This document shows, one piece after another, positions 7,162 through 63,905 of a DNA stretch of 64,000 bases (position 1 is its first letter; each line of letters begins with the position of its first letter). The notes under the pieces are model-generated. The model had not been told where the DNA came from. It did no database searches and was given only the letters and a program-made list of their open reading frames with translations. The stretch comes from Okamejei kenojei (lineage: Eukaryota): NCBI GenBank assembly GCA_035221665.1, contig CM069148.1, positions 26,102,001 to 26,166,000 of the forward strand. The letters run 5' to 3'. The position numbers and the translations under genes were made by a program.

Positions 7162-7384
7162 TTACACTTTTGCTGTCCATTTATTACTGGTAACAAATTT
7201 CTATTCCAGCATTTTTATAAACTGAATTCAAATTCTCAAACTCACATGGAGAGTATTTGAACTTGCATTCTTTGAATTATTAGGCCGGTCATCTGGATAC
7301 CTAGAGCAGGGATATATCCACTACCACCAATCTCCATATGCAAAAACATAAGAATTCACTAAACAAAAAGGATCCAATTGTCTT

Positions 7385-7940
7385 TGCAGGTGAGGCAGAG
7401 ATTCACTTGCACCTCCTCCAACCTATATCATACTGTATCTGCAGTTCCTAAGTGTCAACCACCACACCGGCGAGACAAAGCGCAGGCTCAGCGATCGTTT
7501 CGCTGAACACCTCCGCTCAGTCCGTCTTAACCTACCTGATCTCCCGGTGGCTCAGCACTTCAACTCCCCCTCCCATTCCCAATCTGACCTTTCTGTCCTG
7601 GGCCTCCTCCATTATCAGAGTGAGGCCCAGCGCAAATTGGAGGAACAGCACCTCATATTTTGCTCATACCCATCAGTATGAACATTGACTTCTCTAACTT
7701 CAGATAGCACTTGCTTTCTCTCTCCATTCCCTCCCCCTTCCCAGTTCTCCCACTAGTCTCACTGTTTCCGACTACATTCTATGTTTGTCCCACCCCCTCC
7801 CCTGACATCTGTCTGAAGAAGGGTTTCGACCCGAAACATCACCCATTTCTTCTCTCCAGAGATGCTGCCTGACCTGCTGAGTTACTCCAGCATTTTATGT
7901 CTACCGATTTAAACCTGCATCTGCAGTACTTTCCTACACA
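7385..7940 (+). mobile_element. Penelope-like element 3' fragment (GIY-YIG remnant plus pLTR)
   Basis: same sequence as the 22400-23125 copy in the opposite orientation; hammerhead-like motif at 7811-7843. Confidence 0.75.
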
Positions 7941-17604: not shown

Positions 17605-17782
17605 TACTTTGTCCAACTGTGCCCATGCAGTGGTAGCATTGTTGTACCCATTCTCCTGGCAACACACCTTCATACCAGTGCTTCCATCCTCCATGATCGA
17701 CATAGTCTGCTGTCCAACACCCTTCCTGGTGGGCCTGCTCTCAAGTTCTCTCCCCAAACTAAAGGAACTTCCAGTGGAAGAG
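17605..17782 (+). CDS. DENND2B: DENND2B coding exon
   Basis: acag|T ACT...GAG|gtaag, 178 nt, phase fits the previous exon; TLSNCAHAVVALLYPFSWQHTFIPVLPSSMIDIVCCPTPFLVGLLSSSLPKLKELPVEE. Confidence 0.95.
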
Positions 17783-21173: not shown

Positions 21174-22192
21174 CAGGTATGTTACACTACATACCTTGAG
21201 CAGCGCTGCAGTTCTGCCGCTCCCCGTGTGCGTGACTTTGGCGCCTTTCAGAGGGGGGCGTGTTTAAAGTGCCGTTTTTCCACAGACAGGGCAAATCGAT
21301 CCATGTCAGGGGATTTCGTTGCTGAAGAAAAATTGCAATTCATGAAGGTATTTTTAAATTACGCTAGATTATTTATTAGCTAGAGTAATTTAAAAATCAT
21401 CTTCTAAAGTCGTGAGCGCCGACAACAGGAAGGATTTTATGTAGGGGAGAAAATAAAGTACACAGTTTATTTTTACATTAAAACTAGGTTTTTAGGAAGC
21501 CTTTAATCACATTTTCATGTTGCGAAATGGGGACAAAAAAATGTATGAACCGACAGTGTTTTTCATGCCGACCACCGCAAACCGCAATGTTCCAATCCAC
21601 CGCATTCCACTAAAACCCACTCGCAAGTTGATTTAAATGGTCATTAATTTACAGGAATTAAACACTAAATTCCTTCCATTTGGCCTATAAATTCATGAAA
21701 ATGAGATTTAAAAATCATGTTATATTGTGAATTATTGTGCGAATGTTATTTGGACACTTAGGCAATTTAAAAAAGTTTATCTTTTCTTAAGAAATGGATA
21801 GATGTTTAGATCTAGTAATTGAATTTTGTAATTAGCTACAATTAGGTAACTAACTAATTATATGCTTTAATTTCAGGTCATCCAAGTAATATTGTTTCAT
21901 ATTTGTTTCAGAATGCTTCAATCTATAATAACTGGAAATTTCATTGAGTTCTCTTAATTATTAAGAAAGTTATGGGCTTTTGACTGTCCTAGATCACAGC
22001 TTTTGTGTTAAGTCAATGGAAAGGCAATGGGGAACAAGATGCTAATTTCCGAGTATGAAAATGGCATAACTTTTTTAATACTGAAGATATGAAAGTGAAT
22101 TAGGTGTCAAATTAAACTTATTTTTATGCTTTATCTGATGGGATAAATTGCAGACTTTATTTTTTTAATCTCAAAATGTTGTAAAATTGCTA
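21174..22192 (+). mobile_element. DNA transposon family with 7-bp TSD, copy A
   Basis: termini CAGGTATGTTAC / TAGCAATTTTAC; TSD ggagatg at 21167-21173 and 22193-22199; homologous to copies B and C. Confidence 0.85.
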
Positions 22193-22399: not shown

Positions 22400-23125
22400 G
22401 GGTACACAAAAAGCTGGAGAAATTCAGCGGGTGCAGCAGCATCTAAGGAGCGAAGGAGATAGGCGACGTTTCGGGTCGAGACCCTTCTTCAGACTGGTCA
22501 GGGATCAGGGAAACGAGAGATATAGACGGTGATGTGGAGAGATAAGGAACAATGAGTGAAAGATATGCAAAAAAGTATCGGTGATAAAGGGAACAAGCCA
22601 TTGTAAGCTGTTTGTGGTGTGAAAATGAGAAGCTGGTGCGACTGGGGTGGGGGAGGGAGATAGAGATAGAGGGAATGCCAGGGCCCGAGCTGAGGGAGAG
22701 GTGGGAAGGGGAGGAGACAGCAAGGGTTAACAGAATTGAGAAAATTTAATATTCAAGCCCAAAGGATGCAGACTCCCCAAGCGGAATATGAGGTGCTGTT
22801 CCTCCAGCTTGCGGTGTTGCTCACTCTGGCCGTGGAGGAGGCCCAGGACCGAGAGGTCGGATGTGGAATGGGAGGGGGAGTTGAAGTGCTGAGCCACCGG
22901 GAGGTCGGGTTGGTTATTGCGGACCGAGCGGAGGTGTTCGGCGAAGCGATCGCCAAGCCTCCGCTTGGTCTCACCGATATAGATCATCTGGCATCTGGAG
23001 CAGCGGATGCAGTAGATGAGGTTGGAGGAGGTGCAGGTGAACCTCTGTCGGACCTGGAAGGACTGCTTGGGTCCCTGAAAGGAGTGGAGGGGAGAGGTGA
23101 AGGGACAAGTGTTGCATTTCTTGCG
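22400..23125 (-). mobile_element. Penelope-like element with GIY-YIG endonuclease remnant; other fragments near 26670-26985, 33390-33870, 43720-44060, 58368-58645
   Basis: NLIYCIRCSRC...IYIGETKRRLGDRFAEH...PVAQHFN...LEEQHLIFRLGSLHPLGLN; hammerhead core at 22461-22495. Confidence 0.85.
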
Positions 23126-23778
23126 GTTAAAATCAGCAGCTTTATTTTCACGATTGTAAAGCTTGCAAAAGGGGCTCTTTCTGATACTGGATCATTGACA
23201 ATGAATCTAAAACATAAGGAATACATGGATTACAAGAAGGGCTGTCTAAAGAGGATTGTGTGATGGCAAGCGAATAAGAGGATGATATGAAGGAATTAAT
23301 GTTAAAATCAATTTAAGCTGGAGCAAAATTTAAAATTTGTGATTAGCATAAAAAAGCGAAATATAACAACTGCACACCGTTGGCTGACTAGACGTGAACA
23401 TTGCAAACTCATGGGCAGAAAACACGTATTATTCTATGTATTTAATGGCTCAAAGAATGATATTTCCCTTTACATTAACATGGAAACCACATAGATTGGA
23501 TTTGTGATATTGTGTGATCATAGTTTTTAATATTCTTCTCTTTCGATGGGCTCTTGTGATAATTTGTGCAGCAAGCTGTGACATACATCAAACCCGTTGA
23601 GTGAGCTGGTCTTTTATTCTGAATTCTAAGGCCGGGATTGGGACCATATTAGCTTTTTCCTGAGGGGTTTGACCGGCAGAAGTCATATTTGCATTACCCT
23701 TGGTTAAGGTTACACGCATTTTCAATTAGAAACTTTCCTGACCATGAACTGATTATTTATTAAATTGTGTTTTTCAGG

Positions 23779-25114
23779 AGGATTGTCTACCTTTTGAAAT
23801 CGGTTCAATTATATTTGCACCGACAAAATTGCAAAATTGCAAAACCCTATAACATATAGTGGTACACGAATCTGGAAACAACTTAAAAAAAGCTTTAAAA
23901 TTGGATAATATACCACTCTGTCTCCCTATTGTAAACAATCCCTTATTCAAACCTTCCATGCTGGATAAAGGCTTTATACAATGGAAAAACTATGGAATCA
24001 AAAAGATGGAACACCTTTATAAGAAAGGCACTTATCTTTCATTTCAGCAACTGCAACAGATTTATGGATTGCACTCAAATATTTTTTTTCGATATCTACA
24101 ACTCAGAGATTATGTTAAATCAAATACACAAGATTATAGGAATAAGGAACCAGAAATCCTTGATGAATGTTTGAATAAGCGTCCTAATACAGAAAAATTA
24201 ACAACATATTTATAATACCCTTTTAGATAGCGAGATACCATCGGCAGAATCATATAGACATACATGGGAAAATGAAATAAACCAACCCATAACGAAAGAT
24301 ATATGGGACAAAAGTTTACAATATATACATCAATGCTTGTTAAATTCCAGACATGCTTTAATACATAGATTACATTACTCAAAAGTTAATTTGAATAGAA
24401 TCTTTCCACAGGTCTCCTCTATCTGTGATAAATGTCAGCATCCAGAGGCTAATTTAACACATACTTTTGCAAATTGTATAAAAATTAAGAATTTTTGGAT
24501 TGAGATTTTTAGAATAACTTCTGAAGTTATTAATACTAAACTGGATCCGGACTTGGAATATCAGAACAAAGTTTAACTCTTACAACAAGTCAAAGGCATT
24601 TCCTAGATTACAGTATAATAATTGGGAAGAAATTAATATTAAAATTTTGGAAAGGCCCTATATCTCCCACAATTAAAATGTGGATTACGGAAATGTCGGA
24701 GACCCTACACCTGGAAAGAATCAGATTTGCCCCAATGGACAAACAAGAAGTTTTCATTAGAATATGGTCTTGTTTCATTGATTACTTAAAAGGGTAGATC
24801 AGTTCGGCAGGGAACCCTAACTGAAACTTGGACTCAGGATTAGATGAAAAGTTATACTCTATATTCCTTGATCTTATCTTCAATGATGTATTAATGGTAA
24901 ATTATTCCATCCTTTATGATTTTTTTTGATTTTTATTTTATTTTTCTTTCTGTTTTTCTCTCTTTATAAAAAAAATAAAAAAATTATTAGAGACAAAATG
25001 ATTCACTTGATAATATTAATAATGTATGACTGTTGTACACGAAATATTGCTATCATAATATGTGTTTGCTAAGTCACTGCTTACATACTCTAATAAAAAA
25101 AAATATATTTTTTA
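23779..25114 (+). mobile_element. 5'-truncated L1/Tx1-clade LINE inserted at a DENND2B splice acceptor
   Basis: ORF2 C-terminal remnants (FFRYLQLRDY, CDKC..H zinc knuckle); AATAAA and A-tail near 25092; 17-bp TSD aaattgtgtttttcagg at 23762-23778 and 25115-25131. Confidence 0.9.
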
Positions 25115-25130
25115 AAATTGTGTTTTTCAG

Positions 25131-25172
25131 GCACTGATGGTGGATTTAGGAGCAGATCGCTTCCTTCGACAG
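25131..25172 (+). CDS. DENND2B: DENND2B 42-nt coding exon
   Basis: tttcag|GCA...CAG|gtaag; ALMVDLGADRFLRQ. Confidence 0.93.
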
Positions 25173-26003
25173 GTAAGAACTTTTTAACATAAATATCCCT
25201 CCGTGCAACACGCTGAGGAATATCTGTCTATTAAACGCTGGGTTCAACATTATCATCAAGGACCGTGTATGACTGCTGACAGGATAGCACGCAACTGCTG
25301 ACTGGATAGCACGCAACAAAAGCTGTTCACTGTGACACGTGACAATAAACTAAACTGAACTGATTCGTACAGATGTCCACAAAATATGCACATTATATGT
25401 GGCAGTGCGATTGACTTATGAACAAAGTACTAGTAAAAAAATGTTCATAGGGCAGTGAGAGGGAGAGTCTGGAAAGGGAATATACAAGCTATAAAATGAG
25501 AGAATAATGGCACAAACATGAGAGGAGCTATAGGACATACCATTAGATCAGATGATTCAGAGAGAGAATAGCTGAACCATTATCACATCACGTCAGTTCT
25601 AGGCAGAGTGCGATTTAACTGAGGTTCCACAAGTTGATAAAGTCTACAAAGTTTCAACATGCCCAAGTGGAAGGACTGCCGTTCCTCACACTTATGTTGT
25701 GCATCGTTATAAGAGTTCAGGAGGCCATAGAAAGGACAGAGTGAGAGTGGGAAGGAAAGTGTCAGGTGTAAGATGCTCACACTCATCCCTGTGGACTGAA
25801 TACAAAATGATCTGCAAAACAGTTACCTAATCTTTATTTGGTATCTCCAATATTGAGAAGACCACTTACCTTGCAAATTGCTATAAATCTGGGCCATAGG
25901 ATCCTTTAAATTCTCCAAATATAAATGAATTATTCAGCTATCATTTAGTGACAGGAGATAGCCAGATGGATGAATGTCTATAATTGGTTTTGTTATTATT
26001 TAG

Positions 26004-26115
26004 ATGGATGATGAAGACTCACTCCTACCACGGAAACTTCAGGCTGCTCTGGAGCAGGCTCTGGAGCAAAAGAATGAACTAGTCAATCAAGATTCAGACA
26101 GTGAATCAGATGATG
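26004..26115 (+). CDS. DENND2B: DENND2B coding exon
   Basis: ttag|ATG...GAT G|gtgag, 112 nt; MDDEDSLLPRKLQAALEQALEQKNELVNQDSDSESDD. Confidence 0.95.
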
Positions 26116-27197
26116 GTGAGAAAATAATGATTGCAAGTTTCTTACTGCAATTAAAAATATCACTATTCTAAATTCATTTTTTGTCATGCAGAAGCATAAA
26201 GATAATAATATCTAATTAAGCACTGTATTCAAGTGCAAAATAATCTTAAAGCAAACCATGTATTATTTGTATAGAATAAGCAAATGTCTCCCATCATTAT
26301 TATTAATAAAACATAAGTAATAATGTTGATTCTGACATAAATGACAATTAATATATAATTGCTTGCTTTCTCTTGCACCGTTGGTTCGTTGACACTCTAC
26401 AATGAAATAGAAAACAAACATGCTGATAAATAGATTATGTTTTCAGGATATTTAGTTCCTTTAAAATCTAAACAAGAACCTCTGACATTACACAAACCTG
26501 CAAGGCAGCACTTGGAATGACACCAAGAGGGGAGAATGTCCTGGATGTGTTTTAGCAGCCAGACATGGACAGTACAGGAATTTGAAGGGTGGAAGAGGGA
26601 GCAAGACTCAACAACAGCTGATGCATGAGTTGGAACGCCAAAGCACCAACGTTTGGCAGTGACACATTATAAGACACAAAATGCTGGAGCAGCTCTGCGG
26701 GACAGGCAGCATCTCTGGAGAGAAGGAATGGGTGCTGTTTTGTGTCGAGATCTTTCTTCAGATTGAGAGTCAGGGGAGAGGGAGTCTAGAGATATAGAAG
26801 GGTAAGGTGTGAAAACAATTGTTAGCTATGGGGAAGGCGACAACGCAGCATACAATCATTAATATTTTATCAGGAGGACAGTGAAACGTCGGAGAACTAG
26901 GATGGGTGAGGGAGGGAAAGCAATGGTTACGAAGTTAGATAAATCAATATTCATACTGCTGGGTTGTAAGCTGGCCAGGCAGGTCTTGATTAGTCTCTCC
27001 TAACGTGTCTTCTGTAGGTATTGTGAACGACAGGTGGCATGAACATAAAGATATGCCTCACAACCTTTAAAAATTGCTTTGCAGCTCTCACCTGTGCTGC
27101 AAAATCCAGCCACGGGGCAAGCAGAGAAAGGGAATAGAACTAGAGAAATTAGGTGACAAAACCAAAATAACCCTTTACGTTGTCCATCCTCCCTCAG

Positions 27198-27437: not shown

Positions 27438-27731
27438 GTAGAACTGAACTTTTGTGTTTTTGTGTTCTTATTACTGTTGGCAGATCAATTTCCCTTCTGG
27501 GATAAATAAAGTTCTATCATATCGTAAGCTCCAAGGGCACAATATCATCTCCGTGTACTTAAAGATCGCAGAGTTGCTTCTTTTAACCTATCAACAGCAA
27601 TGGTTTAATGCAAAATATGACAATATTGAAAATGTATCAGCTCAAATTGCAGCTCTGTTGAATGACCACTCTTTCACTGCAGTAATCAGAGCTCAAGGTG
27701 CTATTATTGAATAGAACCCAGGATTGGAAAC

Positions 27732-28745
27732 TGTGGCGGTCCCTGGGGGTTAGGCCACTCCTTGGGTCACCCCCCTCGGCTCTTGAGGGACAGGGACGAT
27801 TGTCTGGCCACGGGGTTTCCCGGGGGCTGCCCGCTGGCGTTCTGTGTGTTTGCCATGATTCATTACATGACTTCTGAACCTGCCTGGCATCTGGCCTTTT
27901 CCTGACCTCATCCAGGGCACTACAACTGGTGACCCCGACGTTCATCACTGTTGCGCTGAAGCTCCCGACTTTGTGGACCAAATAGCCTGATATCTGGTTC
28001 CAGTAGGCAGAGGCACAGTTTGCTCTGAGCGGGGAGTTCAACCCGCCGGCAGGGCCAGGTGGAGCAGCCTTCGGATGCTCTGCAACGTCTTAGGCAGACG
28101 GTGGGCAAACTGGCACCTGTGCCCACCTCTCATCGTGGGTCCTTCCGTCCGCACGTTCCCTCTGCTCTGGAGGACTGCCAGTTTGTCTTCCTGCGCAGGG
28201 ATGCTCACCGGACGCCCCTCCAGCGGCAGTACGAGGGTCCCTTCCGGGTCCTGGAACATGGCTCATCCACTTTCGTCCTGGACATGGGGGGTCAGTATGA
28301 GACTGTTTCAGTTGCGCGACTGAAGCCGGCGCATATTGACATTGATCGGCTGGTGCTGATAGCGCGGCCCCACAAGCCAGGGTGCCCTCTGTCTAGGGTA
28401 CCTCCTCCAGTGGCTACTCCATCCCCTGCATCTGTTGGTCCGTTGCCCGTTCCTGTGCCGGGCATGCGCGCACTCAGGCTGGTCACCGCGTGCGCCCTCC
28501 TGTCCGTTTTGTGCCTCTGGTTCTTGATACCAGGTGGGGGGGGGGGGGGTCCTGTGGCAGTCCCTGGGGGTTAGGCCACTCATTGGGTCACCCCCCTCGG
28601 CTCATGAGGGACAGGGACGATTGTCTGGCCACTGGGTTTCCCGGGGGCTGCTCGTGGGCGTTCTGTGTGTTTGCCATGATTCATTAAATAACTTCTGAAC
28701 CTGCTTGGCATCTGGCTTTTTCCTGACCTCATCCAGGCCACTACA
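27732..28745 (+). mobile_element. internally deleted Ty3/Gypsy LTR retrotransposon (1014 bp)
   Basis: 193-bp LTRs TG..CA at 27732-27924 and 28553-28745; TSD aaac; PBS TGGTGACCCCGACGT (tRNA-Trp) at 27927; gag remnant LKLPTLW..WF..AEAQF; integrase GPY/F tail YEGPFRV..VSVARLKPAH; G-rich PPT. Confidence 0.92.
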
Positions 28746-29422
28746 AAACCACAATTTATTGTATAAACTGGTAGTATTTAAGTCATCTGAAGTGCACCAA
28801 AATTTCTAATATAAATTGTCATTGCATTTCAAGTATTTAAAAAATCTCTCAAATCATTTGAGAATCTTTTTAAAAAAAAAGGTATCCTGCACTTATCTTT
28901 CTTGACACACGTGCACTCCGTAGCAGAGACTTGGGACAACTTCATTCTCTACCATTTCAAGTAGCAGGTACTTTCAATATTTGACCCAGTGAATAAAATA
29001 TAAATATTGGATGAATATTTCCTCAGCACACATTCTGGAACATCTGGATTTTTTCTGTAGCTTTGCACTGTTGCTAAGTTATAAACAATTGTTTATAAGA
29101 TATAAACAATTTACCGACAGAACTCACAGTGGATATGCATAATCCATGGCAATAAATATTGATTTGTAAGATCTTTTGAGACTCTAAATGTCTCAATGTT
29201 GATTCTTTTAGCAATAATTACAGCCTCCCAGGGATTGCAGACTTAAACATGGTAAACTAACTGGCAATTTAGTTTGACCAAACTCACAGTAGGAAATGTA
29301 CTTTATGTCACCAATTAAAATTTCAAATAGTGTTGATTTCTATTTTAGCAGTTGAAAGCGTGTAGACATTAAAGCCACATTTAAGGCCTCATTTAGTTGT
29401 TGTTTTATTCTCTCCTTTATAG

Positions 29423-34312: not shown

Positions 34313-36377
34313 TAAACTTTTATACAATTTTCTCTTCCTTGTTTCATTTTAGTTTCTGTGTTTTCTATTGAATAGATGTTTGTTCAAAACAGGAGAAAGG
34401 CAGAAGTCAGGGAACTTCACAGGTCAAATAACTTAGCAGTTATTGCAGGTCCACCATCAATATTGCGGCACACTTGGTTCCAGAGCCTTGCTGGATTATC
34501 CATTTTGCCAGACCAACAAGGGTCACAGCCTCGGGGGCTCGAAATACGAATTCAGTCATGGAAGTTGGAAATGGGAACAGATCTGCCAACTCTGGCCAGT
34601 CTGGAGTTCCAGAGCCCCAGTCACAGGGGGTAAATTCGACCCTGCCGATCTCCGCGGAAGTCCCGATGAGGTCAGGACCGGCAGCATCACCTGGCCTAGG
34701 CACCACATTTGGGGGTGGGGGGGACGGACGGGGACTTCAGGGGGAGATATCAAGAGTACTCTTGTTATTTTGTTCCTTTTTAAAGGTGCCAGACCTCCAG
34801 TTGCCAGAAAATCGGTAGTGGACCTGTATTACTGAGATATAAGAGTCAGTAATCAAAGAGGAAATCGTTAATCATTTAGGAAAGCTAATCATAATTAAAC
34901 ATAATTGACATTATTTTTTAAAAGGCAAATCATGCTTGATGAATTTACTTCACTTTTTTGAAGATATAAATGTGAGAATTGATAAAGGAAGCAGAGATGT
35001 CATGCATTTACATTTCCAAACGGCATGTGACATGGGTCTGAAAGGTAAATTAGAAGCCCATGGCATTGAAGGAAGAGTATTGGACTGGATTGATACTGCC
35101 TGACTCATAGAAATCAGAGTTTGAATAAGTAGGTCATTTTCATAATGGAAGGACTTAATTAGTGGAATACCACAGGAATAATTATTGGCCAAAGTAGTTC
35201 ACTATTTAATGCCCTAGAGGAAGGAACACTAACAAAGGTTTCCACATTTACCAATTACGTGAAAATGGGTGGAAGGTCAACATTGTGAAAAGTATACTGT
35301 GATTCTGCAATAGGATATAGATAGATTGAGTGAGAATGAAAACACAGGCAAATGGCATATAATGTTGGGAAGTATTACATCATGCATGCCAATAATCAAA
35401 GGTCGAATGGCATAATGAAGAGAGACTGGAATTCATAGAGTATCACAGCAGGGAAACAGGCCCTTTGGATCAACTTGTCGACCAACATGCCCCATCTAGG
35501 CTAGTCCCACCTGCTCATGTCCCCACATCCCTCTAAACTTTTCCCATCCAAGTACCTGTCCAAATGTATTTTAAATGTTGTTATTGTACCTGCCACAGTG
35601 ACCTCCTCTAGCAGATGAGTTTAATTTGGCATCCATATTTTGCAGTCCTTCATGACCAAAATTGACCCTTTGCTCCAACTATCCTATCTATCCGTGACAC
35701 CACTTTCAGGGAATCATGTACCTGCACTCCTAGATCCCTCTGCTCTACGACACTCCCGAGAGCCCTGACATTCACTGGGAAGGTCCTGCACAGGCTTGAC
35801 ATCCCAAAATGCAACAACTCACACTTCTCTGCATTAAACTTCATTAACCATTCTCAGCCCACGTGCCCAATTGACAGAATTTTTGTTAACCATCTTCACC
35901 ATCTACAATACCACCAACTTTAGTGCAGCAATGTTACAAAATTTTGAGATTTAAAAAATCAAGTCTGCAATTTATCCCATCAGATAAAGCATAAAAATAA
36001 GTTTAATTTGACACCTAATTCACTTTCATATCTTCAGTATTAAAAAGGCTATGGCCATTTTCATACTCGGAAATTAGCATCTTGTTCCCTATTGTTTTTC
36101 CATTGGCTTAACACAAAAGCTGTGATCGAGGACAGTCAAAAGCCCATAACTTTCTTAAAAATTAAGAGAACTGAATGAAACTACTATAGATTGAAGCATT
36201 CTGAAACAAATATAAAACCTATTACTTGGATGACCTGAAATTAAGACATATAATTAGTTAGTTACCTAATTGTAGCTAATGACAAAATTGACCGGAAATA
36301 GCAATAAACATCCAGACTGTCTTGAAAATTCACAAATGTGATATTCTCCAGATCAAAACTTTAACATTATAGTATTA

Positions 36378-38861
36378 ATAGACGAAGCGCAGACCCGTTG
36401 GGTCTGTTCCCCCATTGTGCGGTTGTGGAGGGGGGGGGGGGGGGCAGCACGTCGCTTCACACACACTAACTACCACCCCGCACACAAGCTAACTACCCCC
36501 TTGATATATTAATATTATTAATTTGCTCCTTTTACCCCATGACTGCCCTATCCACTGACGCATAGCCCCCAACTCGCAGGCGCGTCTGGGCGGGGGGGGG
36601 GGGGGGGGGGGGGGGGAGGGTTAGAGAATGAGGCAGAGAGAGAGAGTTGGGAGAGACAGAGAGGCAGAGACAAAAGGGCAAGAGACAGAGGGGTTGGGAG
36701 GGAGAGGGCAGATGGGGAGTGGGGAGGGGGGAGGGGAAGGGAGAGAGAGGGGGATGAGGATGGGGGGGGGGGAGGGTAAAGGAGGAGACAGGGGTAGGGG
36801 AAGGGGATGGTAGAGAGGGGTGGGGGGAGGGGAGGGGGAGGGAGTAGAGGAGAGGTGAGGGTGGGGGAGAAAAAGGGAGAGGGGGAGAGGGGGAGGGGAG
36901 AGAGGAGAGATGGAGAGAGAGTGGGAGGAGAGGAGGGGGGAGAGAGAGAGAGAAAGGGAGAGGGGTAGCAGGGAGAGGTGCAAGAGAGAGGGGAGGGGGC
37001 GATGGGGTGAAGAGGGGAAGAGGGGGTGGGAGAGGGGGAGGGGTGAGGAGAGAGGGAAATGGAGAGGGGGAAGGGGAGGAGAGGGAGGTGGGGGAGGGGG
37101 TGAGAGAGGGTCTGGGGAGGGGGTGAGGGAGAGGTGGGGGAAGGGGAAGAGAGGGAGGGAGGAGGGAGAGATGGGGAAGGGGAGAGGGGAAGAGTGGGGA
37201 GGGACAGGGAAAGGGGGGAGAGGAGAGGGGTGGGGGAGGGAGATTGGAGGGCTGGGGGATGGGGGAGAGATGAGTGGGGAGGGAGGGGTAGGGGGGGTGG
37301 TGGAAGAGAAGGGAGGGCGAGGGGGGTGGTGGGAGAGGGAGAGAGGGGTAGGGGAAAGGGGTGGGGGGATAGTGGAGGGGGAGAGAGGGTGGGGGGAGGG
37401 AGAGGGGTGGGGGAAGGGGGGGAGAGAAGTGGGAGCGTGGGGAGGGAGGGGTAGGGGGGTAGTGGTGGAAGAGGGAGAGAGGGGTAGGGAAAAAGGGATG
37501 GGGAGAGGGGAGGAAGGAAGGGAGAGAGGGGTGGGGGAGGGAGAGGGGTGGGGAGGGAGAAGGGGGGAGAGGTGAAAGAGTGGGAGGGAGGGGGAGGAGG
37601 GAGTTGGGGTAGGGAGGAAGGTGAGAGGAAGAGAGAGAGGGGGGGAGTGATGAGGATGGGGGAGTGGAGGAGAGCGAGTAAAGAGGGGGTTGACGGGTTG
37701 GGGATGGGGGTGGTAGAGGGGGAAGGGGGGAGGGTGGGTGAGGCGGGTAGCAGGGAGTGTGCAAGCTAGAGAGGGGAAGGGGTGGGTGGAGATGGGGGGG
37801 ATGGTGGGGGAGGGGAAGAGAGGGAGAGAGGGGGATAGTGTGGAGGGAGGGTGAGAGGGTAGGGTATGGGTAGGGAGAGACAGGGAAGAGTGTGTAGGGA
37901 GGGGGAGAGAGAGTGGAGAGCGAAGTGTAGGGGAGTGGGGAAGAGCGATGAGAGGTAGGGGGGAGTGGTGGAAGTGAGAGAGAGGTAGGGAGGGGGTAGA
38001 GGTGGAGGGGAGAGGGGAGGCGGGGGAGAGAGGGAGGGGGAGGAGGAGAGTGGGGAGGGAGAGGGTAAAGGAGAGAGATGGGGTGGGGAGGGAGATGGGG
38101 AGGGGGTGGGGATGTGAGGAGAGAGAAGTGGAAGAGTAGGGAGGGGGAGAAAGTAAGTGTAGGGGAGAGTGTGGGAGAAGGGGAGTGGTGGAAGAGGGGA
38201 TAAAGGTAGGGGAAAGGGGTTGGAGAGAGGCCCTGGAGGAAAGATGTGGCGGGAGAAGGGTGTGGGAAGGGGAGAGATGTGAAGAGTGGGAAGGGTAGGG
38301 GGAGAGGGGTGGGGGAGGGGAAGGGGGGGGGGGGGGAGGATGAAGGGTGGTGGGAGTGAGAGGGATGGGAGGTGGGAGGAGCAGGGTGCAAAGGCAGATG
38401 TAAATAAGATCCATTCCGATTGGACATCCGTGAGGGATGGCATTGTGACATCACACAATGGAACGTGCTGGAACATCAGGCGGGGAGGGGGGGCTGGGGC
38501 TGGTGCAAGGGCGGATGTAAATTAGATCCATTCCGATTGGACATCAGTGAGCATTGGGCATTGTGACATCACACGATGGAATGTTTACCAACATTCTATG
38601 GGTGAGAGCAGTTTGATTTTTTTAAGATTTTGAAATATGGGGGGGGGTGTGGATTTTATTAAAAATGTGTACGTAAAAATGTCTAAATGTAATGAGGAGT
38701 GCATTAGTGAATGTAAAAGCGTAATCTCTAGCAAAATGGAAAAAATGGCGGCGTTTGAGGGTCTGGTTTTGGCAGACCACGGAATCAAAGGGCGAAAATC
38801 TTATCCGAAGGAAAAAAATGGAATGTGACATACACCCACAAGACACACACCAGGTCGGCAG

Positions 38862-53051: not shown

Positions 53052-54551
53052 GAATTGTAATTTATTTACCTATCTGTTACGGACTTACTGCATATAATAC
53101 AATAATATTAAAGTTCTGATCTTGAGAATATCACATTTTTGAATTTTCAAGGCAGTCTGGGTGTTTATTACTATTTCCGTCACAACGGTCAATTTTGTAA
53201 TTAACTACAATTAGGTAATTAACTAATTATATGCTTTAATTTCAGGTCATCCAAGTAAGATGTTTCATATTTGTTTCAGAATTGTTCAATCTATAATAAC
53301 TGAAATTTCCATTCAGTTCTCTTAATTTTTAAGAAATTTATGGGCTTTTGACTGTCCTCGATCACAGCTTTTGCATTAAGTCAAAGCAACAGGGAACAAG
53401 GTTTTCTGGTTAGTAGTTTTTCTGATAATAAACTAAATAAGAGTGAGCTCTTTCCATTAAACAATCTAGTTTCGAATTATGGTCAGTTTCCATTTAGATT
53501 GACTACCGAATGTTTTACTTATTTAGGCATTAAGATTACCAAGAAACACAAGGATTTATTTAAAGCCAATTTTACGCCTTTGATTGACCACATCAAACAA
53601 CAGTTCACTAAGTGGTCACCAATGTCCTTATCTCTAATAGGCCGATCAATGCTATTAAAATTTTTATCTTACCTAAATTTTTATACTTATTTCAGACGAT
53701 ACCAATTTTTATTCCTAAATTTTTCTTTGATATCATTGGCTCCAAAATTTCCTTATATATGGCAGAATAAAAATTCCAGACTAAGTAAAAAATACTTACA
53801 GAAATCAAAAAAAGATGGTGATTTGGCACTGCCGAACCTTAGATTTTACTATTGGGCAGTTAATGTTCGCTATTTAACGTTTTGGACAAAAGATTTAGAA
53901 GATACCCAATGTCCAGGATGGATAAATCTTGAACGTGATTATATGCAAGGGCTACCATTGGATTCTATTCCAGGGGCCTCATTACCTTTTACAATTACGA
54001 GACTGAATAAATACACGACTAACCCAATATTAAGACATACACTTCGAATATGGTTTCAATTTCGTACGTTTTTTGGATTTAATGATTTTATTTTATCGAG
54101 TCCTATCATATCTAATTTTTTCTTTCAACCTTCTAGCACTGATCAAGCCTTTCTGTTATGGAAGAGGAAGGGATTAGTAGCTTTTCGTGATTTGTTTTCG
54201 GATGGTTGTTTTATGTCTTTTGAACAACTCTGCAATAAATATAATTTACCTAACTCACATTTTTTAAGATATTTACGAATTAGACATTTTTTGAGGGCTA
54301 CTCTACCCTTTTTTCCGTTACTACATCAAACCGATATCTTGGATTTTTTTTTACATTTGAACCCTTATCAGAAGGGTTTAATAACGACTATTTATGAGTT
54401 GATTTTGAAATTAAAAAAAGATACATTTGATAAACTTAAGAATGACTGGAAAAGTGAACTACAAATTTCTTGATCTATAGAGAAATGGGAGAGGATTCTT
54501 CAATTAGTTAATACTTCCTCATTGTGTGCAAGACACGCTTTGATACAATTC

Positions 54552-57281
54552 TTGTAAAATATTTTTATTAGAAGTAAATACATATTAAGGAATAACATAA
54601 AATCAAAAAGAAGAAACATATTATTTGTCACATACATTCTTAATATTTTTAAAGTTTACAGTCGTTCTTATTTATACTTCTATACATTTTATTATTTTAT
54701 AACAGAAAGAAGATAGTAAAGAGAAATAATAAAAATAAATAAAATAGAAGTAGAAAATCGATAAAATGAGTGGAGTATTAAGCAAGATATTCTTCATTGG
54801 AGATATATGCGTGGTCTATTGTATATAGTTCTTCATCTATTCCTTCATTCAGGCTTCAGTCAGGCCCTCAAACCGGACCACCTTGACCCTTTAAGTATTC
54901 AATAAATGGAGACCATATTCCTCTGAATTGATCTAGCTTGTCCAAAAGGACAAGTCTTAATCTTTCCAGATGAAGTGTCTCCGCCATTTCTGTAATCCAC
55001 ATTTTGATTGTGGGGGATGTAGGACCTTTCCAAAATCTTAGTATTAGTTTTTTACCAATTATTAAACTATAACCAATAAAAATTCTTTGCTGTGTTGTTA
55101 GTAGTTGATCCGTTTCTAATATTCCTAATATGATTAATTTTGAGTCTGGAATCAGATGTGCATTAACTACCTTCGAGATTATCTTAAAAATTTCTATCCA
55201 AAAATTAGTAATTTTTATACATTTTGTGAATGAATGCGTTAGATTAGCTTCTAAATGCTGACATTTATCACATATAGCAGAAACATTTGAAAAAATTGTG
55301 TTTAATTTGGATTTTGAAAAGTGTAATCTATGTAAAACTTTAAATTGTATCAAGGAGTGTCTGGCATTTAATGAGCAGTGGTGTATATGTTGTAAACTTT
55401 CATTCCATACTTCTACACTAATTGTTTGACCTAATTCATTTTCCCATGCCTGCCTATATATTTCCGACTTTGGTAAATCATTTTCCAGTAAAATATTATA
55501 AATATATATTAATTTTTCTGTATTCGGATATTTATTTAGACATTCATCTAAAATTTCTGTCTTTCTATTTCTAAAATCCTGTGTGTTTGATTTAACATAG
55601 TCTCTAATTTGTAAATATCTAAAGTACTCTTTTGAGTGTAATCCGTAAATTTGTTGTAATTCCTGAAATGAAAGGAATAAACTTTCCTTGTACAGATCAC
55701 CCATCTTATTTATTCCATAGTTCTTCCATTTAAAAAAAACCTTTATCCATCATTGAAGGTTTAAAAGTAATGTTATTTACAATGGGAAGAGCCAGTGGTA
55801 TACTTTCTAATTTTAATGTTTTCTTTAATTGTTTCCAAATACGTATGCCACTTTATATTATTGGATTTCCTCTATAAATTTCCTTGTGTATTTTAGTATT
55901 AGCAAATAAAATCAAGCTAATTTCGAAAGGTGAACAATCTTCCTTTTCCATTTTTAACCAGTTTGGTTGTTTATCTACTTCTTCCAACCAAAAATTCATA
56001 TTTTTAATATTAACTGCCCAGTAATAAAACATAAAATTAGGCAATGCAAAACCTCCATTCATTTTTGATTTACATAGATATTTTTTATTTATTCTATGGC
56101 TCTTATAATCCCAAATAAAATTGGTAACTTTATATCAACTTTATACAAGCATATGGTGCAACATAACATAACCTTAGAAATAAAATGTTTAGAACTGGGT
56201 GACAGATGGGCAAAAATATGAGATAGGTGGATCTCTCCTAATCTCTCTTTTCTTTTTACTTTTTCCTTCTCTTTCAATCTTTAACTTCTCACCTCTGTCC
56301 TTTTTTTGTTTTTGTTTTCTGTTTCTACTCGCTTGTCTATCTATTCCGACACTCTTTATTTCTTTTTTCTCTCACTGTTCTTTTATTATTGAACTAAAAG
56401 TATGAAGTTGTACAAGAATGAGAATATGTATTTATGTATTAGGTACTTAAGTACCAGACTACTGTACTTACTTCTAACAAAAATAAACAAACAAAATAAA
56501 TAAATAAATAAATAAAATTGGTAACTATAGAGTCCACTTTCTTAAAAAAAAATTTAGGAAGATATATCGAGATCAGTTGAAACAGGTATAATAATTGCGG
56601 AAGAAAAATCATTTTTATCGCATTAATTCTACCTAGCATTGAAATAGGTAATGTTTTCCAATATAGGATATTCTTAAGTAGTTTATTCAATAGGGGTGGG
56701 AAATTAGATTTAAATAAAGAATCATATCTTTTTGTTACATAAATTCCAAGATATTTGATTTTTTCATTTGCTATCTTAAAAGGATATTGTTGATTTATTT
56801 GTGAGTTATTTCCCATTATTCACATAAGTTCACCTTTATTCCAATTAATTCTATATCCTGAAAACAATCCAAATATAGTTATTAAATCTAATAAATTAGG
56901 AATACTAATTTCCAGCTTTGTAATATAAAGTAATACATCATCTGCGTATAAAGAGATTTCATTTTCAGTTTCTTTGGTTTCATACCTGTATATTTCAGGA
57001 TGTAATCTCACGCATTGTGCTAATGGTTCAATTGCCAGTGCGAACAGTAGTGGAGATAGAGGACAACCTTGTCTACAGCCTCGGAATAAATTAAATTTAG
57101 TTGTTAACATTTGATTTATTAATATTCTAGCTGTTGGCTTGGTATATAGTAGCTTAACCCATGTTATAAACTTCTCTCCCAACTGAAAAGTTTCCATAAC
57201 CGAAAATAAATAAGACCATTCATTCTGATCAAAAGATTTCTCTGCGTCCAATGAAATAATTGATAAATCTTTATTAATGTT
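54552..57281 (-). mobile_element. L1/Tx1-clade LINE, same family as 23779-25114
   Basis: RT motifs SLDAEK, RQGCPLSPLLF, YADD; 13-bp TSD tttgatacaattc at 54539-54551 and 57282-57294. Confidence 0.9.
56130..56509 (+). mobile_element. short LINE 3' end nested in the minus-strand L1
   Basis: 17-bp TSD aaataaaattggtaact at 56113-56129 and 56510-56526; (TAAA)n tail. Confidence 0.8.
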
Positions 57282-59159
57282 TTTGATACAATTCAAGATG
57301 GTTCACAGAGCTCATATGTCAAAAGATAAGTTAACTCGTTTTTATGGTCAAATAAATCCTACCTGTGACAGATGTAATTCTGAAGTGGCCTTATTGACTC
57401 ATATGTTTTGGTCCTGCCCACTTTTGGAAATATATTGGAAATAAATTTTTGATACTATCTCTGTAGTTTTAGGTATTGATTTACAACCTCATCCTATACT
57501 AAAATTTTTGGGCTACCAATGTTAGATTCTATTCACCTGTCCCTTTCCGCCCATCGGCTGATTGCTTTGACCACATTAATTGCCAGAAGATTTATTTTAT
57601 TTAAATGGAAAGATTCCAATCCTCCGACCACACTCCATTGATACTCTGAAACGATATCATGTTAAAATTTAGAAAAAATTAGGAGCGACATTGTTGAACC
57701 CTTGGTTAAATTTGATAGGACTTGGGGAAGATTTATTCAACATTTTCATACGACATAAACTGTCCCCTCTCCAACTGTTATAATAATTTTTTTAACTGGT
57801 ATACGGTGGAACGGACTTGTCGACAAACAGGGACTTAAATTGTTGAAACTCTTTGCAGCCCAGATTCTGTTTTCCTTTTTTAATTTTAAAAAAAAAATCT
57901 CTTTAGTTTAGGGGGGTTTTGTTTTTTTGTTTTTTCCCTTTTCTCTTTTTTTTCTTTTTATCTTCTTGTTTTTATACATATAAGTTCTCTTTTAAACACT
58001 TAACTATATTTATATAGAGACCGGGAGGTCTATATTCAATGTGCATTTTGATACCGGACTCACATTTAGGTTATACCTGCCATTAATGTAACCCTGATCC
58101 CAATATATCAATATCACTGTTATGTTTATCATTACTTGTTTGTTGTTTTGTTTTTGCTTTTGAAAAAAAACAAATAAAAAGATTTTAAAAGAAAAAGAAA
58201 CAAAGATGCTGATTTCCGATTATGAAAATGGCCATAACTTTTTTAATACTGAATATATGAAAGTGAATTAGGTATCAAATTTAAGTTCTTTTTATGCTTT
58301 ATCTGATGGGATAAATTACAGGCTTGATTTTTTAAATCTCAAAATGTTATAACATTCCTAATCAAAGGGGATGAGTTTCAATAAAAATGTAGAATAGATA
58401 ATTGTTAGTGAGGGGAAGGTGACAATGAAGCATACAAATATAACATTTTTAATAATAGGAGGATAGTCAATGGTTGGAGAACTAGGATCGGAGATGGATG
58501 GAGAGAAAGGGAAAACAAGGATTCGAGAAGTCAATATACCGCTGGGTTGTAAGCTGCCCAAGCGAAATATGAGGCGCTGTTCCTCCAATTTACTTTGGAC
58601 CTCAGTCGGACAGTGGAAGAGGTCCACGACAGATAGGTCAGTATTGTTTCCATTATCATCGTTACATCAAACCCAGGTCTCTGGCGCTGTGAGGCAGCAA
58701 CTCTACTGCTGCGCTACCGTGCCGTCCTTACAAAATGCTAATTCTTCTTCTGCCCGAATGGTATCTCTGGCATAGTATTCTCAAGTGAAGACACTATTTA
58801 AAATGTATATCTATATGTCAAAATTGCAATTTTATCTTCTGCAGAAGCAACAGTAAAATGGCATGATTTATAGGTCTGTTGCTTGAAATTTCTTCCCCAT
58901 TTGAGAGAGACTCCACAGCAGAATTATATTTAGAGCAATTTGTTTTGGAAAGTTGGACAAGATCATGGGGTATCTTTGAGATTTACTTGAACGTTAAAGT
59001 GTTTCATGTGGAATATCTAACCCATAGCATATAATGAACCCGGAACATGGAACAGTACAGCACCGGAACAGGCCATTCGGCCCACAATGTCTGTCAAACA
59101 TGATGCTAAGACAAACTATCTCTTCTGCTTGCATGTTATCCATAAGTATCAAGTCATCT

Positions 59160-59628: not shown

Positions 59629-60769
59629 GTCAGAGCCGTGGCTGGGCCACGCTGGGCTAGGGAGCGCGGGCCGACAGGCCGCTCGGGTCGCAGAATGGGG
59701 AACCCGGTGCCGGGGTGCGCGGCCCACCTTTCCCGGGGTTTAGCCTGGCATCATGATCGGCACGGACATTGTGGGCCGAAGGGCCTGTTCCTCTGCTGTA
59801 CTGTTCTGTGTATAAAGATTAACGTGGTTCCGGTAGGCCGCAAGGCGCGTTCCTATGATATACTGTGCCATGTTCTGTGTATAAAGGCCAGCAAGGATAT
59901 TGTGGACCAAAGGGCCTGATCCTGGGCTATACTGTTCTATGTGTAGATGTGTAATAGCACAAACATTACGAGCTGACAGCTCTGTTCCTCCACTGTACTG
60001 TTCTATGAGTAGTCAGGGTGACACAGTGGCGCAATAGTAGAGTTGCTGCCTTACAGCGCCACACACCCTGGTTTGTTCCTGACTTCGGGTGCTGCATGTC
60101 TATAAGGAGGTTGTACGTTCTCCCTGTGACTGCGTGGGTTTTCTCCGGATATTCCGGTTTCCTCCCACACTCAAAGTACAAGTTTGTAGGTTAATTAACT
60201 TCGGCAAAATTGTTCCTAGTGAGTAGGATAGTGTTAAGAGTACGGGATTATAGCTGGTCTGCACTGACTCGGTTGGCCGAAGGGCCTATTTCCACATTGT
60301 TTCTCTAAAGTCTAAAGCTTCTAAACTCAGCATAGATATTGTGGGCTGAAGGGCCTACTTCTCTGCTATACTGTTTTATGTATAATGGGTGGCCAAATGG
60401 CCCAATCTTGTACTGTGCTATTTAAGATCCTTGGTGGGGTGTCTTTGACAAGATAGTACTTGAGATGTTTTCTCTGGTGGGAGAGGCATGATCAAGGGGA
60501 TATGGCTACAAAGTAAGGAGTCGGTCATAGAGCCGTACAGCATGGAATCAGGCCTGTTGACCCACCTTGTCCATGCCGACCAACGTGCCCCATCTCAGCT
60601 AGTCCCACCCATCCACGTTTAAATCATTTTTGTAGGGTGCATTCTAACATGCAAATATTTTTACATATTTTAATATGTATATTTGTAAAATAAAAAGATA
60701 TACATATTTTAATATGTATTTAAAATATTTTTAATATTCTAATATGTACTTTTTTTTTCCAATTTACAG

Positions 60770-61120
60770 GACAGTTGACGTTGAAAGCAAGCAAAAGTCC
60801 AGCGGAAGTCATCCGGTACGAAAATGGACTTCTCGAGTGTGAGATTGCTAATCTCAGTGCGATTACTTTGAACCCAAATAATTTAGGCGTTTTATGGGTT
60901 TTTACCAGTGGAACTGAAGATTTAAATATCTTTATGTATTCTAACGGACAGATAACAAATCTGTGGAAGGAAGCAGAGCTGTCTGAAAGCTCCATTTTAG
61001 ATGGAAACATGTCACTTTTCCTGAGACATGTTACGTTAAAACATTTTGGGGAATATCGCTGTGAGGTTGTTATTCCGCCAAATTCCAAAGCTTCTCTGAC
61101 GGTAAAGCTTGAAGTTTTAG
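60770..61120 (+). CDS. NCR3LG1: B7-H6-like gene, IgV exon
   Basis: tacag|GA CAG...TTA G|gtaag, 351 nt, phase 1/1; C...LGVLW...GNMSLFL...GEYRCEVVIPP parallels B7-H6 MGITW...GDASLRL...GEYRCEVVVTP. Confidence 0.85.
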
Positions 61121-61815
61121 GTAAGGAGATTTCTTGCATTTCACTGTAAATTATTTAATATTGTGATATAAAGCTGTATGTCCCATCTGCCCATATTTGG
61201 CCCATATCAGTCTTGACGTTTCCTATCCATGTACCTGTCCAAATGCTTTTCGATGTTTTTGTAGTACCTACCTCAACTATCTCCTCTGCACTCTTTCCAG
61301 CATAATGGTAGTTTCTTAGAGCATGGAGACCAAAAGAGTTTGGGTATAAATTTGTATTTCAGAGAAAATAGTTTTGCAAATTCCATGGTAGACACAAAAT
61401 GCTGAAGTAACTCAGCGGGACAGGCAGCATCTCTGAAGAGAAGGAATGGGTGACGTTTCAGGTCAAGACCCTTCTTCATGGGTGACCTTTCGGGTGGAGA
61501 CCCTTCTTCTAATGCAAATTCCATCATGCTAGTATAACGCCTTAGAATGAAAGCAAAATTCTACATTTATTTGATATCTGAAGGAAGAACAAATGTTATT
61601 GGAAACTCTCATATCGGGTAGAAACTGTGAACTGAAAGATATCAAATGTCATAGGTTGATTGCGTTGCATGGATGCATCCATGCTGTATCACTAAAGTAA
61701 ACTAAACTGGGCTCATGGAAGAGCTGTTCCAAAACCAAGTCTTTATGTGACCCAACAGTATGTTTTCTATGTTAAGTATAGCCGTTGAGACATTAATATA
61801 TCTTTTTTTTTACAG

Positions 61816-62142
61816 CACGACCCACAGTAACTATTGTTTCTGAGAAGCTTGTGGAGGTTGGCAATGGAGGAGAGATGGTCTTGGGTTGTCAGTTAAATGG
61901 ATATTATCCTTGCGAATGCAAAACGGATTGGTTTCAGTCAAACCCGTCACAAAAGAAAACAAAGCTGTTAACTGATATCTGCATCGCCCCTCCAATCAAA
62001 AATTCTGATGGGACATGCAACGTGACCACTGAAGTTCGACTGGAACCTCGTGTAGAAGATATTGGCAGCAGTTTTGAATGCCGGGTGACACACAAGGCAT
62101 TTCCAGAGCCATACACTGCGAAAGCTGCAGTGACTTTGAAAG
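61816..62142 (+). CDS. NCR3LG1: B7-H6-like gene, IgC1 exon
   Basis: tacag|CA CGA...AAA G|gtcagt, 327 nt, phase 1/1; GYYP...PIKNSDGTCNVT...EDIGSSFECRVTH parallels B7-H6 GFYP...TIKNMDGTFNVT...EDPGTVYQCVVRH. Confidence 0.85.
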
Positions 62143-63905
62143 GTCAGTTAGTTTTAGTTTTGGAGATACAGTGTGGAAACAGGCCCTTCAGCCCAATGAG
62201 TCTGCTGACCAACTATTTTCCATACACTAGTTCTATCCTACATATTAGGGGCAATTTACAGAGGCCAATTAACCTACAAACTTGCATGTCTGGAATGGGG
62301 GACAAAACCGGAGCACCCAGAGGAAACCCACGTTTGTACGGTCACGGGGAGAACGTACAAACTCTGTACAGACAGCACCCGTAGTCGGGATCGAACCTGG
62401 GACTCTGGTGGTGTAAGACAGCAACTCTACCGCTGTGCTGTAGTGTTCTTTCTATTTTTTAATGAAAAGTTGAAATTTCAAACTTTTGGTTACGTTCAAG
62501 TTGAGGGGTAGAGCCACGGAGTAATCCAGCACGAAAACAGGCCCTTCAGCCCAACTCATTCGTGCCGACTAAGACGCCCCATCTCAGCAAAGCCTTTTGC
62601 CCGCGTTTGCCCTCTAACCCTTTCCTCTCCACGTACATATCCAAATGTCTCTTAAATGTTGTGATAGTACCTGCCTCAACTACCTCCTCCTGCAACTCGT
62701 TCCATATACCCACCACTCTGTGTAAAAAAGGTAGTCAGGTTCTAATTAAATCTTTCCCCCCTCACCTTAAACTTGGGATCCGAAGTGACCTTTAGGATGT
62801 GTGGAAAGTTGTAACGTGGGGTAGTCATACAGTTGTTCAGCAAGGAAACAGGCCATTCAGCCCAACGTCTATACCATCAAAATCCCCATCAAGTTTGTCC
62901 CATTGGCCCACATTTGGTCCTTATCTCTCTGACCCTTTCCCATGCAAGTATTTGTCCAAAGATCTGCTAAATGTTATTATTATATCTGCATCAGCTACCT
63001 CCTTGTGCTGCTCATTCCATACCACCACCACCCTATGAATAAAAAAGTTGCCCCTCAGGTTCCTATTAAATCTTTCCATCTTACCTTAAACTATGTTCTC
63101 TGGTTCTTGATTTCCTACCCTGGGTAAAAGACATTCACCCTTTCAATTCCCCTCGGGATTTTATACACCGCTATAAGCTGAAGATAAAACAAGTATGATT
63201 TTTTAAAAATAGTTTGATAAAGGCTTTTTAAACTGAGTATTTTTATAGAACAATTATGCTAACCCAAACTCCTTTCTGCTAAATCTGTCCATGAACCTTT
63301 TTCTGCTAAATCTAAATACATCTGTAACTATAATTATCTTGTCAAAGTGTTGAGTATTTATAACTTCAATAACTTTTTTGATAAACAGTAAGTTTCACAT
63401 CCTAAGTAAAGAATTTTCTTCTTTTCTCTTTATTTCTTGTTACCTTTTATCAATGGTTTTTAAATTCTCCCGTGTGGAAGAAATTTCCTCTTGGTCACTT
63501 CCGAGTCTTTTCCCGAACATGTTCAGGCTTTTAAAAGTAGATGTGAGCGGTTAGTTCTGTACCATCTTCATCAGTTCATAAGTCATAGGAGCAGAATTAC
63601 GCCATTCTGCCCATTGAGTCTACTCTGCCATTCAATCAATCATGGCTGAGCTAGCGCTCAACCTCTCAACCCCATTCCATCTCAACCCAATTCAACTGCC
63701 TTCTCCCCATAACCTTTAATGTCTTTACTAATCAAGAACCTGTCAATCTCCACTTTAAAAATACCCAATGACTTGGCCTACACTGCCATCTGTGGCAATG
63801 AATTCCATAGATTTACCACCCTCTGGCTAAAGAAATTCCTCCTCATCTGTTTTCTAAAGGTACGTCTTGTAATCTTGTCATTTTTTTTGCACTTTTGTAT
63901 TACAG

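Follow-up and report, generated by a model that had tools for sequence, protein, structure and literature searches.

Insertions of retrotransposons close to 3' splice sites have been described in several systems. The L1 endonuclease has the consensus TT/AAAA, and the length of target-site duplications (TSDs) in humans peaks at 14-16 bp (PMC2912911). In the human disease allele NF1 c.1642-1_1642insAluY, a sense insertion made by the L1 endonuclease was accompanied by a duplication of c.1642-11 to -1, which duplicates the acceptor AG (Wimmer et al. 2011, PMC3219598). The inserted element is an Alu, the TSD measures 11 bp, the pyrimidine tract was left upstream, and the exon is skipped, with disease as the outcome (PMC3219598). 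A TSD-derived AG is also found in introners and other introns that stem from transposable elements (TEs), where the element is removed with the intron; introners are mostly DNA transposons and create new introns (PMC11282704). Tolerated sense LINEs less than 20 bp from an acceptor have been described as survivors of a 'hazardous zone', and two of seven full-length human L1 elements within 20 bp of exons sit near acceptors (Zhang et al. 2011, PMC3088655). For Alus near exons, 21.7% of those assayed were reported to alter splicing (PMC6326789).

Two further lines of work concern the signals that such elements carry. In humans, the distance between branch point and 3' splice site is 19-37 nt in about 90% of cases, and TEs can supply branch points, as was described for MIR inserts in reporters of OGDH intron 4a (PMC7969005); the 3' end of an L1MD3 supplies part of the branch site of a GPR143 pseudoexon (PMC7951965). 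A-rich sense L1 copies are reported to be kept intronic by SAFB, in mammals as well as in flies, an effect that is weaker in testis (PMC10901741).

A related arrangement is found in the DENND2B gene of the window, that is, the whole 64-kb stretch of DNA that was analysed. The preferred reading, with a probability of roughly 0.75, is that a sense insertion of an L1, 16 bases ahead of a DENND2B exon, duplicated the acceptor of that exon, that the mRNA uses the downstream copy with a branch point likely placed in the L1 poly(A) signal, and that the upstream copy likely remains a decoy, silent for the most part. The features concerned are collected in Table 1.

Table 1. Positions in the window of the DENND2B exons, the L1 insertion and the associated splicing and polyadenylation signals
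Feature	Position	Strand	Remarks
Preceding DENND2B exon (DENN domain)	17605-17782	+	Phase-0 donor GAG/GTAAGA; orthologue residues 902-961; PF02141, E 1.5e-22
Ancestral branch-point candidate TCCTGAC	23736-23742	+	A at 23741, -37 from the exon start of the upstream AG; candidate only
Ancestral branch-point candidate AACTGAT	23747-23753	+	A at 23752, -26; candidate only
Upstream TSD copy, decoy acceptor (likely)	23762-23778	+	AG at 23776-23777; preceded by TT
Predicted 24-codon read-through	23778-23852	+	18 codons in the ORF2 frame, then out of frame to TAA (23850-23852)
5'-truncated, decayed L1	23779-25114	+ (sense)	C-terminal third of ORF2 to 24797, then 317-nt 3' UTR
Extra AATAAA within ORF2	24276-24281	+	No U/GU-rich element behind
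Extra AATAAA in the L1 3' UTR	24974-24979	+	
CTAATAAA	25090-25097	+	L1 poly(A) signal overlapping branch-like adenines 25093 and 25096
Downstream TSD copy, acceptor in use	25115-25131	+	AG at 25129-25130; RNA contigs leave the window at 25128
42-nt DENND2B exon	25131-25172	+	ALMVDLGADRFLRQ, followed by GT; donor CAG/GTAAGA, near-consensus
Next DENND2B exon	26004-26115	+	Joined to 25172 in both RNA contigs

The host gene and its exons

Eight exons of the window map in order onto residues 792-1132 of DENND2B, a protein of 1,132 residues in which the DENN domain spans residues 787-969 and the dDENN domain residues 1050-1098. The Pfam DENN domain was recognized in the exon preceding the insertion and dDENN in a later exon. 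Among the best 120 of 711 matches, the best named homologues were DENND2B/ST5 of cartilaginous fishes. Over five exons, the identity amounted to 211-214 of 219 residues for named chondrichthyan proteins, 218/219 for an unnamed protein and 204/219 for the coelacanth. The host is therefore probably a cartilaginous fish.

The 42-nt exon is kept directly after the residues PVEE in 81 of the best 120 homologues (from 711 matches). The intron before it is ancestral, as shown by other vertebrates, whose homologues run on into intron sequence at the same place, and by the empty site described below, which keeps the acceptor. An introner, or a new intron derived from a TE, was ruled out, since no intron was created within exon sequence.

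Several other features were observed in and around the gene. An element of about 1 kb with 195-bp direct repeats that are 94% identical (27731-28746) lies in a DENND2B intron, and its internal frame (28029-28574) is taken by us to resemble the end of an LTR-retrotransposon integrase. Downstream of DENND2B, about 2 kb of G/A-rich degenerate tandem repeat (36500-38500) has a GC skew of 0.73, and the long frames in it are low-complexity artefacts. Two open frames on the plus strand (60724-61149 and 61797-62384) resemble immunoglobulin-domain exons of a neighbouring gene.

The L1 element

ORF1, the endonuclease domain and the 5' promoter were lost from the DENND2B copy through truncation, and its ORF2 contains several frameshifts and indels, the A content of the coding part being 38.6%. 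A second L1 in the window (55944-54720, minus strand), referred to below as the paralogue, is 71.5% identical to this copy over 1,246 columns, and the two are 60-74% identical at the protein level. The reverse transcriptase (RT) of the paralogue matches human L1 ORF2p at E 2.6e-29 as against R2 at 4e-8, and the sole match of its C-terminal part is L1 ORF2p (E 3e-4); the DENND2B copy itself has no RT. A PDB search with the C-terminal piece of the DENND2B copy returned no L1 and only chance kinase matches. Within 24202-24573, this copy encodes a CCHC knuckle (CDKC-x8-H-x4-C), for which Pfam zf-RVT gave E 5.8e-5 and 24.1 bits, under the cut-off of 27.5. In both DNA runs, the L1 was covered thousands of times more deeply than its flanks, which reflects an abundant family but gives no copy number.

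Other repeats of the window were also noted. The paralogue (54552-57281, minus strand) is nested inside a third L1 in the opposite orientation (52.5k-58.2k, plus strand); its 13-bp TSD lies at 54539-54551 and 57282-57294, beyond which the ORF2 of the host element resumes. A young interspersed repeat at 21643-22192 is 90-92% identical to copies at 35927-36289, 53191-53384 and 58203-58360.

The target-site duplication

The initial annotation had described a 17-bp TSD containing the AG and the first exon base, and its coordinates were found to be exact. The 17-mer is present exactly twice in the 64-kb window when both strands are searched (none on the minus strand); the repeat stops at 17 with no further extension on either side, and the two copies enclose 1,336 bases of foreign sequence. 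Each consists of the pyrimidine tract, the AG and the first exon base, spanning -16 to +1 of the acceptor. A chance repeat was ruled out, the probability of such a 17-mer at both ends of the element being about 5e-7 even with 50x50 offsets allowed. Its length is near the usual 14-16 bp, and the endonuclease site, TT/AAAT at 23760-23765, has one mismatch to the L1 consensus. A longer, decayed TSD of 25-27 bp (BLAST, 92% over 26) was rejected: the paralogue also ends AATAAA..TATTTT, and therefore the T run before the downstream TSD copy is L1 sequence. At the other end, the alignment with the paralogue starts at 23776, because of which the last three bases of the upstream TSD copy (AGG) are likely a 5' microhomology with the L1.

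A GIY-YIG fragment on the minus strand (22730-23191; Pfam E 2.5e-4, just under the cut-off) is separated by 570 bases from the TSD downstream of it; this fragment, which has a relative near 7380-7659, is likely Penelope-like.

Empty and filled sites in relatives

Part of the stretch was contained in 20 of 24 listed sequencing runs. Contigs of four runs (X1, X9, X18 and X19) were compared over 23270-26600 at 90% likeness, with organisms B, D and E and rows of small share left out. Over 1,953 flank letters, run X9 from organism C shows 102 substitutions relative to the window, together with 54 gap letters. In its record 25, positions 23273-23766 (record 202-688) directly abut 25120-25324 (record 3-201). 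The skip of 1,353 letters equals the distance between the repeat copies (25115-23762) and leaves one copy, with more than 190 letters on each side. This contig is an empty site, and it settles the TSD. The presence or absence of the insertion in related species had been proposed as a check, and an orthologue lacking the L1 and having both 17-mers as evidence to the contrary; organism C has no L1 and a single copy of the repeat. In the 5' flank piece of organism C, 16 of 19 substitutions lie before 23597 and, among the rows shown, at most three in the 170 bases before the ancestral acceptor (23597-23766).

The DNA run of organism A (X1) shows 15 differences in 2,006 letters, or 0.75%, from the window. 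Its record 1 is unbroken from before 23270 to 23805 at the full flank depth of 33.5. The end of this record, 30 letters (k-1) beyond 23775, is where an assembly graph would be interrupted by a repeat, and it also fits the 3-base microhomology. The insertion junction is crossed by 27 L1-specific letters, four short of the 31-letter bar for a bridge. The L1 is likely present in organism A, and the insertion likely took place after organism C had split off and before organism A did. At such an age an unchanged 17-mer is expected, and the identity of the two TSD copies is hence no sign of selection.

The acceptor used in RNA

Two runs of organism A from one study (X18 and X19), made from samples other than the DNA sample, were taken to be RNA, although X18 had been classed as probably DNA. 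Each run yielded one contig, of 5,317 and 5,274 letters, respectively, with a joint 25170>26002 (GT..AG, cut +2). Since this joint is absent from both DNA runs, the contigs represent spliced RNA. The shorter side of the joint is exactly 42 letters long (25129-25170), and 3,047 (X18) and 3,006 (X19) letters lie 5' of it, compared with 2,883 coding bases expected. The match between contig and window stops immediately ahead of the AG, which fits an exon ending in AG that is spliced to 25131; hence, the downstream acceptor is used in two of two RNA runs, carriage of the L1 in these animals being assumed. The earlier statement that the downstream TSD copy serves the real exon agrees with these unbroken 5.3-kb contigs. 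Among the rows shown, no RNA contig lay over 23382-23717 and none entered at 23778, an absence to which we attach no weight, as contigs drop minor forms and the upstream exon falls outside the compared stretch. The RNA depth over the L1 derives from other L1 copies.

A probable branch point within the poly(A) signal

Because the TSD covers only -16 to +1 and positions -17 to -60 of the downstream acceptor are all L1, the branch point of the downstream copy almost has to be L1-derived. Within -18 to -40, the only adenines in a T-N-A context are 25093 (-38) and 25096 (-35), both of which lie inside AATAAA; more distant L1 candidates are found at -48 and -59, and the last AG before the acceptor, also L1-derived, is 55 nt off. 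Position 25093 is one base outside the usual 19-37 nt range. On a crude scale of match to the U2 consensus (maximum 6) it scored 3.5, as against 4.5 and 4.0 for the ancestral candidates. To judge from these motifs, the branch point and the poly(A) signal likely share bases in the candidate adenines. CCTGAC, CTGAT and CTAAT were found where the initial annotation had placed them, and the upstream copy does keep the ancestral branch candidates. As to its proposal that the downstream acceptor depends on a branch point in the L1 tail, the L1 origin is strongly supported, the branch zone being entirely L1; CTAAT overlaps the AATAAA at 25092-25097, and the exact adenine is a prediction.

The paralogue, which ends CTAATAAAAATATTTT, has the same CTAATAAA; therefore, the motif arrived with the element. 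The AATAAA at the 3' end of the DENND2B copy matches the family end seen in the paralogue, and only 1-4 A follow the T run. Behind the AATAAA at 25092, the U/GU-rich element is the TSD tract itself, so the poly(A) signal looks functional. This position had been given correctly, although two more AATAAA, at 24276 and 24974, had been left out. The donor of the 42-nt exon, with 9 of 11 matches to the U1 consensus, is located 76 nt after AATAAA. A literature search that covered few subscription papers returned no account of this locus or of a branch point inside an L1 AATAAA, and DENND2B is mentioned in none of the best 15 of 4,067 records from one query.

The upstream acceptor

Splicing to the upstream AG would read EDCLPFEIGSIIFAPTKLQNCKTL, with TAA at 23850-23852. 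This had been regarded as a phase-0 L1 ORF2 peptide; the frame and the stop are right, but the ORF2 frame holds for the first 18 residues only. Relative to the paralogue, a net gap of 10 bases then changes the frame, and it is in the shifted stretch that the stop, a product of the decay of this copy, occurs. The EDC-x-PF peptide was absent from the best 120 of 711 homologues (cluster representatives).

By a simple match count with no trained model, the best of the six GT sites within 300 nt of the upstream AG matches 4 of 9 donor positions, and the best donor in the whole L1, 1,119 nt off, matches 6 of 9. The real donor, with 8 of 9 matches, is 42 nt away from the downstream AG and 1,395 nt from the upstream one. 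A cassette exon from the L1 was rejected, there being no usable donor, and so was recursive splicing, as splicing to the upstream AG leaves GAG/GAG with no GT. On sequence grounds, the upstream AG would likely be a mostly silent decoy. Low-level leak to it is possible and would probably be without function, and the same features argue that a DENN-truncated isoform from two competing acceptors, as suggested in the initial annotation, would be minor.

Proposed mechanism and alternative explanations

In the proposed mechanism, target-primed reverse transcription would have started from the nick at TT/AAAT, with 5' truncation on the 3-base microhomology. Exon definition would pick the downstream AG, which has the strong donor close by, and branching would take place at 25093 or 25096. 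The AATAAA would be silenced, since U2 would occupy the same bases and U1 would sit at the donor just downstream. In HIV-1, suppression of the 5' poly(A) site by a donor that follows it at 195 nt has been described (PMC3694450). The effects of SAFB and U1 assumed here are transferred from other species. Tolerance would be explained by the pyrimidine tract inside the TSD and by the shortness of the A tail. What counts against this explanation is that the upstream AG retains a better branch-point candidate than the downstream AG, and that the AATAAA at 25092, with its U/GU-rich element, looks functional. The view that the gene survived through its own TSD was overstated: the TSD is real and its downstream copy is spliced, but the TSD alone is no rescue, because an insertion of the same geometry in NF1 causes exon skipping. 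By analogy with that case, survival likely required the pyrimidine tract inside the TSD, the L1 branch point and the very short A tail together.

An unlikely possibility is a real alternative last exon of about 1.33 kb, bounded by the upstream AG and one of the L1 poly(A) signals. It would give a protein that ends after residue 961 of 1,132 followed by 24 L1-derived residues, perhaps in the germ line. The acceptor at the upstream AG (23776-23777) is complete, has the stronger branch candidates and is preceded by 46 nt free of AG, it lies ahead of a sense L1 with three AATAAA downstream (24276, 24974 and 25092), and a stop in a last exon would escape junction-dependent decay. Yet the full-length form is a single unbroken contig in both RNA runs, and the peptide bears no sign of being kept, as its stop falls between indels specific to this copy, in a short stretch that is out of frame, and the remaining ORF2 is broken. 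The short product would also be without the end of DENN, all of dDENN and the last 17 residues, and is hence predicted to be likely GEF-inactive. The effect of DENND2B on cell shape requires these last 17 residues (PMC4347646). General support comes from reports that a strong acceptor ahead of a poly(A) signal makes an L1 a gene trap and that such events increase in testis (PMC10901741), and that LINEs near exons occur in chimeric ESTs at 4.6% versus 0.7% (PMC3088655). An extension of this idea, which we rate as decidedly unlikely, is that the CTAATAAA end with its T run and near-absent A tail might combine a branch point and a poly(A) signal in one movable unit, by which sense insertions just before a pyrimidine tract would heal themselves. 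DENND2B would then carry a switch in which U2 gives the full-length form through the downstream AG, and cleavage factors together with the upstream AG give a GEF-dead short form where L1 silencing is low, e.g. in testis.

Tolerance of the insertion might also be leaky, some transcripts skipping the 42-nt exon (in frame, with a loss of 14 residues) or retaining the L1 and the exon as one 1,395-nt exon that is subject to nonsense-mediated decay. Skipping was the outcome of all four Alu insertions into NF1 3' splice sites (PMC3219598), and insertions less than 20 bp from an acceptor are described as usually harmful and purged (PMC3088655); as skipping of this exon preserves the frame, it would ease fixation. 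We nevertheless judge such leakage very improbable, given that the depth over the next exon (26004-26115) is accounted for by a single contig with the 42-nt exon (predicted 20.8/14.0 against 20.8/14.1 seen in one RNA run, and 21.2/14.3 against 21.2/14.3 in the other), and given the conservation of the exon after PVEE and its near-consensus donor. The age of the insertion can be disputed as well: the L1 could predate the split from organism C, in which a precise deletion between the repeats would have removed it, or it could still be polymorphic in the lineage of the window. Only one outgroup run was compared, out of the 12 listed rows of organisms B-E that have a share above 0.2, and the depth of X1 directly 3' of the element is half (17). 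Precise loss of an L1 is rare, however, and gain is the simpler reading; in X1, the contig that runs unbroken into the L1 at full flank depth fits an L1 on both alleles. Either version of this explanation is held to be extremely unlikely.

Comparison with known systems

The preferred reading, in which the duplicated acceptor is served from the downstream copy, makes the DENND2B insertion a natural counterpart to the human disease allele, the NF1-type geometry being tolerated here. In both, a sense insertion by the L1 endonuclease duplicated the acceptor AG within the TSD. At DENND2B, in contrast to the NF1 case (PMC3219598), the 17-bp TSD includes the tract, the element has a tail of 1-4 A and brings a branch-like motif, and the exon is retained in the mRNA. 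These differences, namely the tract inside the TSD, the short tail and the branch motif at the element end, likely decide the outcome. As in introners, the TSD carries the AG and the element is removed with the intron; the L1, however, lengthens an existing intron and brings no donor (PMC11282704). The insertion likewise resembles the 'hazardous zone' survivors in being a tolerated sense LINE less than 20 bp from an acceptor, but it is a 1.3-kb copy in what is likely a cartilaginous fish, whereas those counted are full-length human L1 elements (PMC3088655).

With the OGDH and GPR143 cases, DENND2B would share a TE branch point at normal distance (PMC7969005, PMC7951965). Those cases are reporters or pseudoexons, whereas here a conserved coding exon would depend on the TE branch point, with candidate adenines that, unlike in OGDH and GPR143, are part of the L1 poly(A) signal. 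An A-rich intronic L1 in sense orientation, with internal poly(A) signals and an acceptor ahead of it, is also what makes up the L1 gene traps suppressed by SAFB (Ilik et al. 2024, PMC10901741); unlike in the traps described there, the acceptor at DENND2B is a copy of the host's own, and its use is hypothetical. The general picture would change only if the short isoform turned out to be real and regulated, or if the L1 family turned out to be enriched just upstream of acceptors. The kind of event is already known; the twist at DENND2B is the likely overlap of branch point and poly(A) signal, which makes a competition between U2 and the cleavage machinery testable with two identical acceptors.
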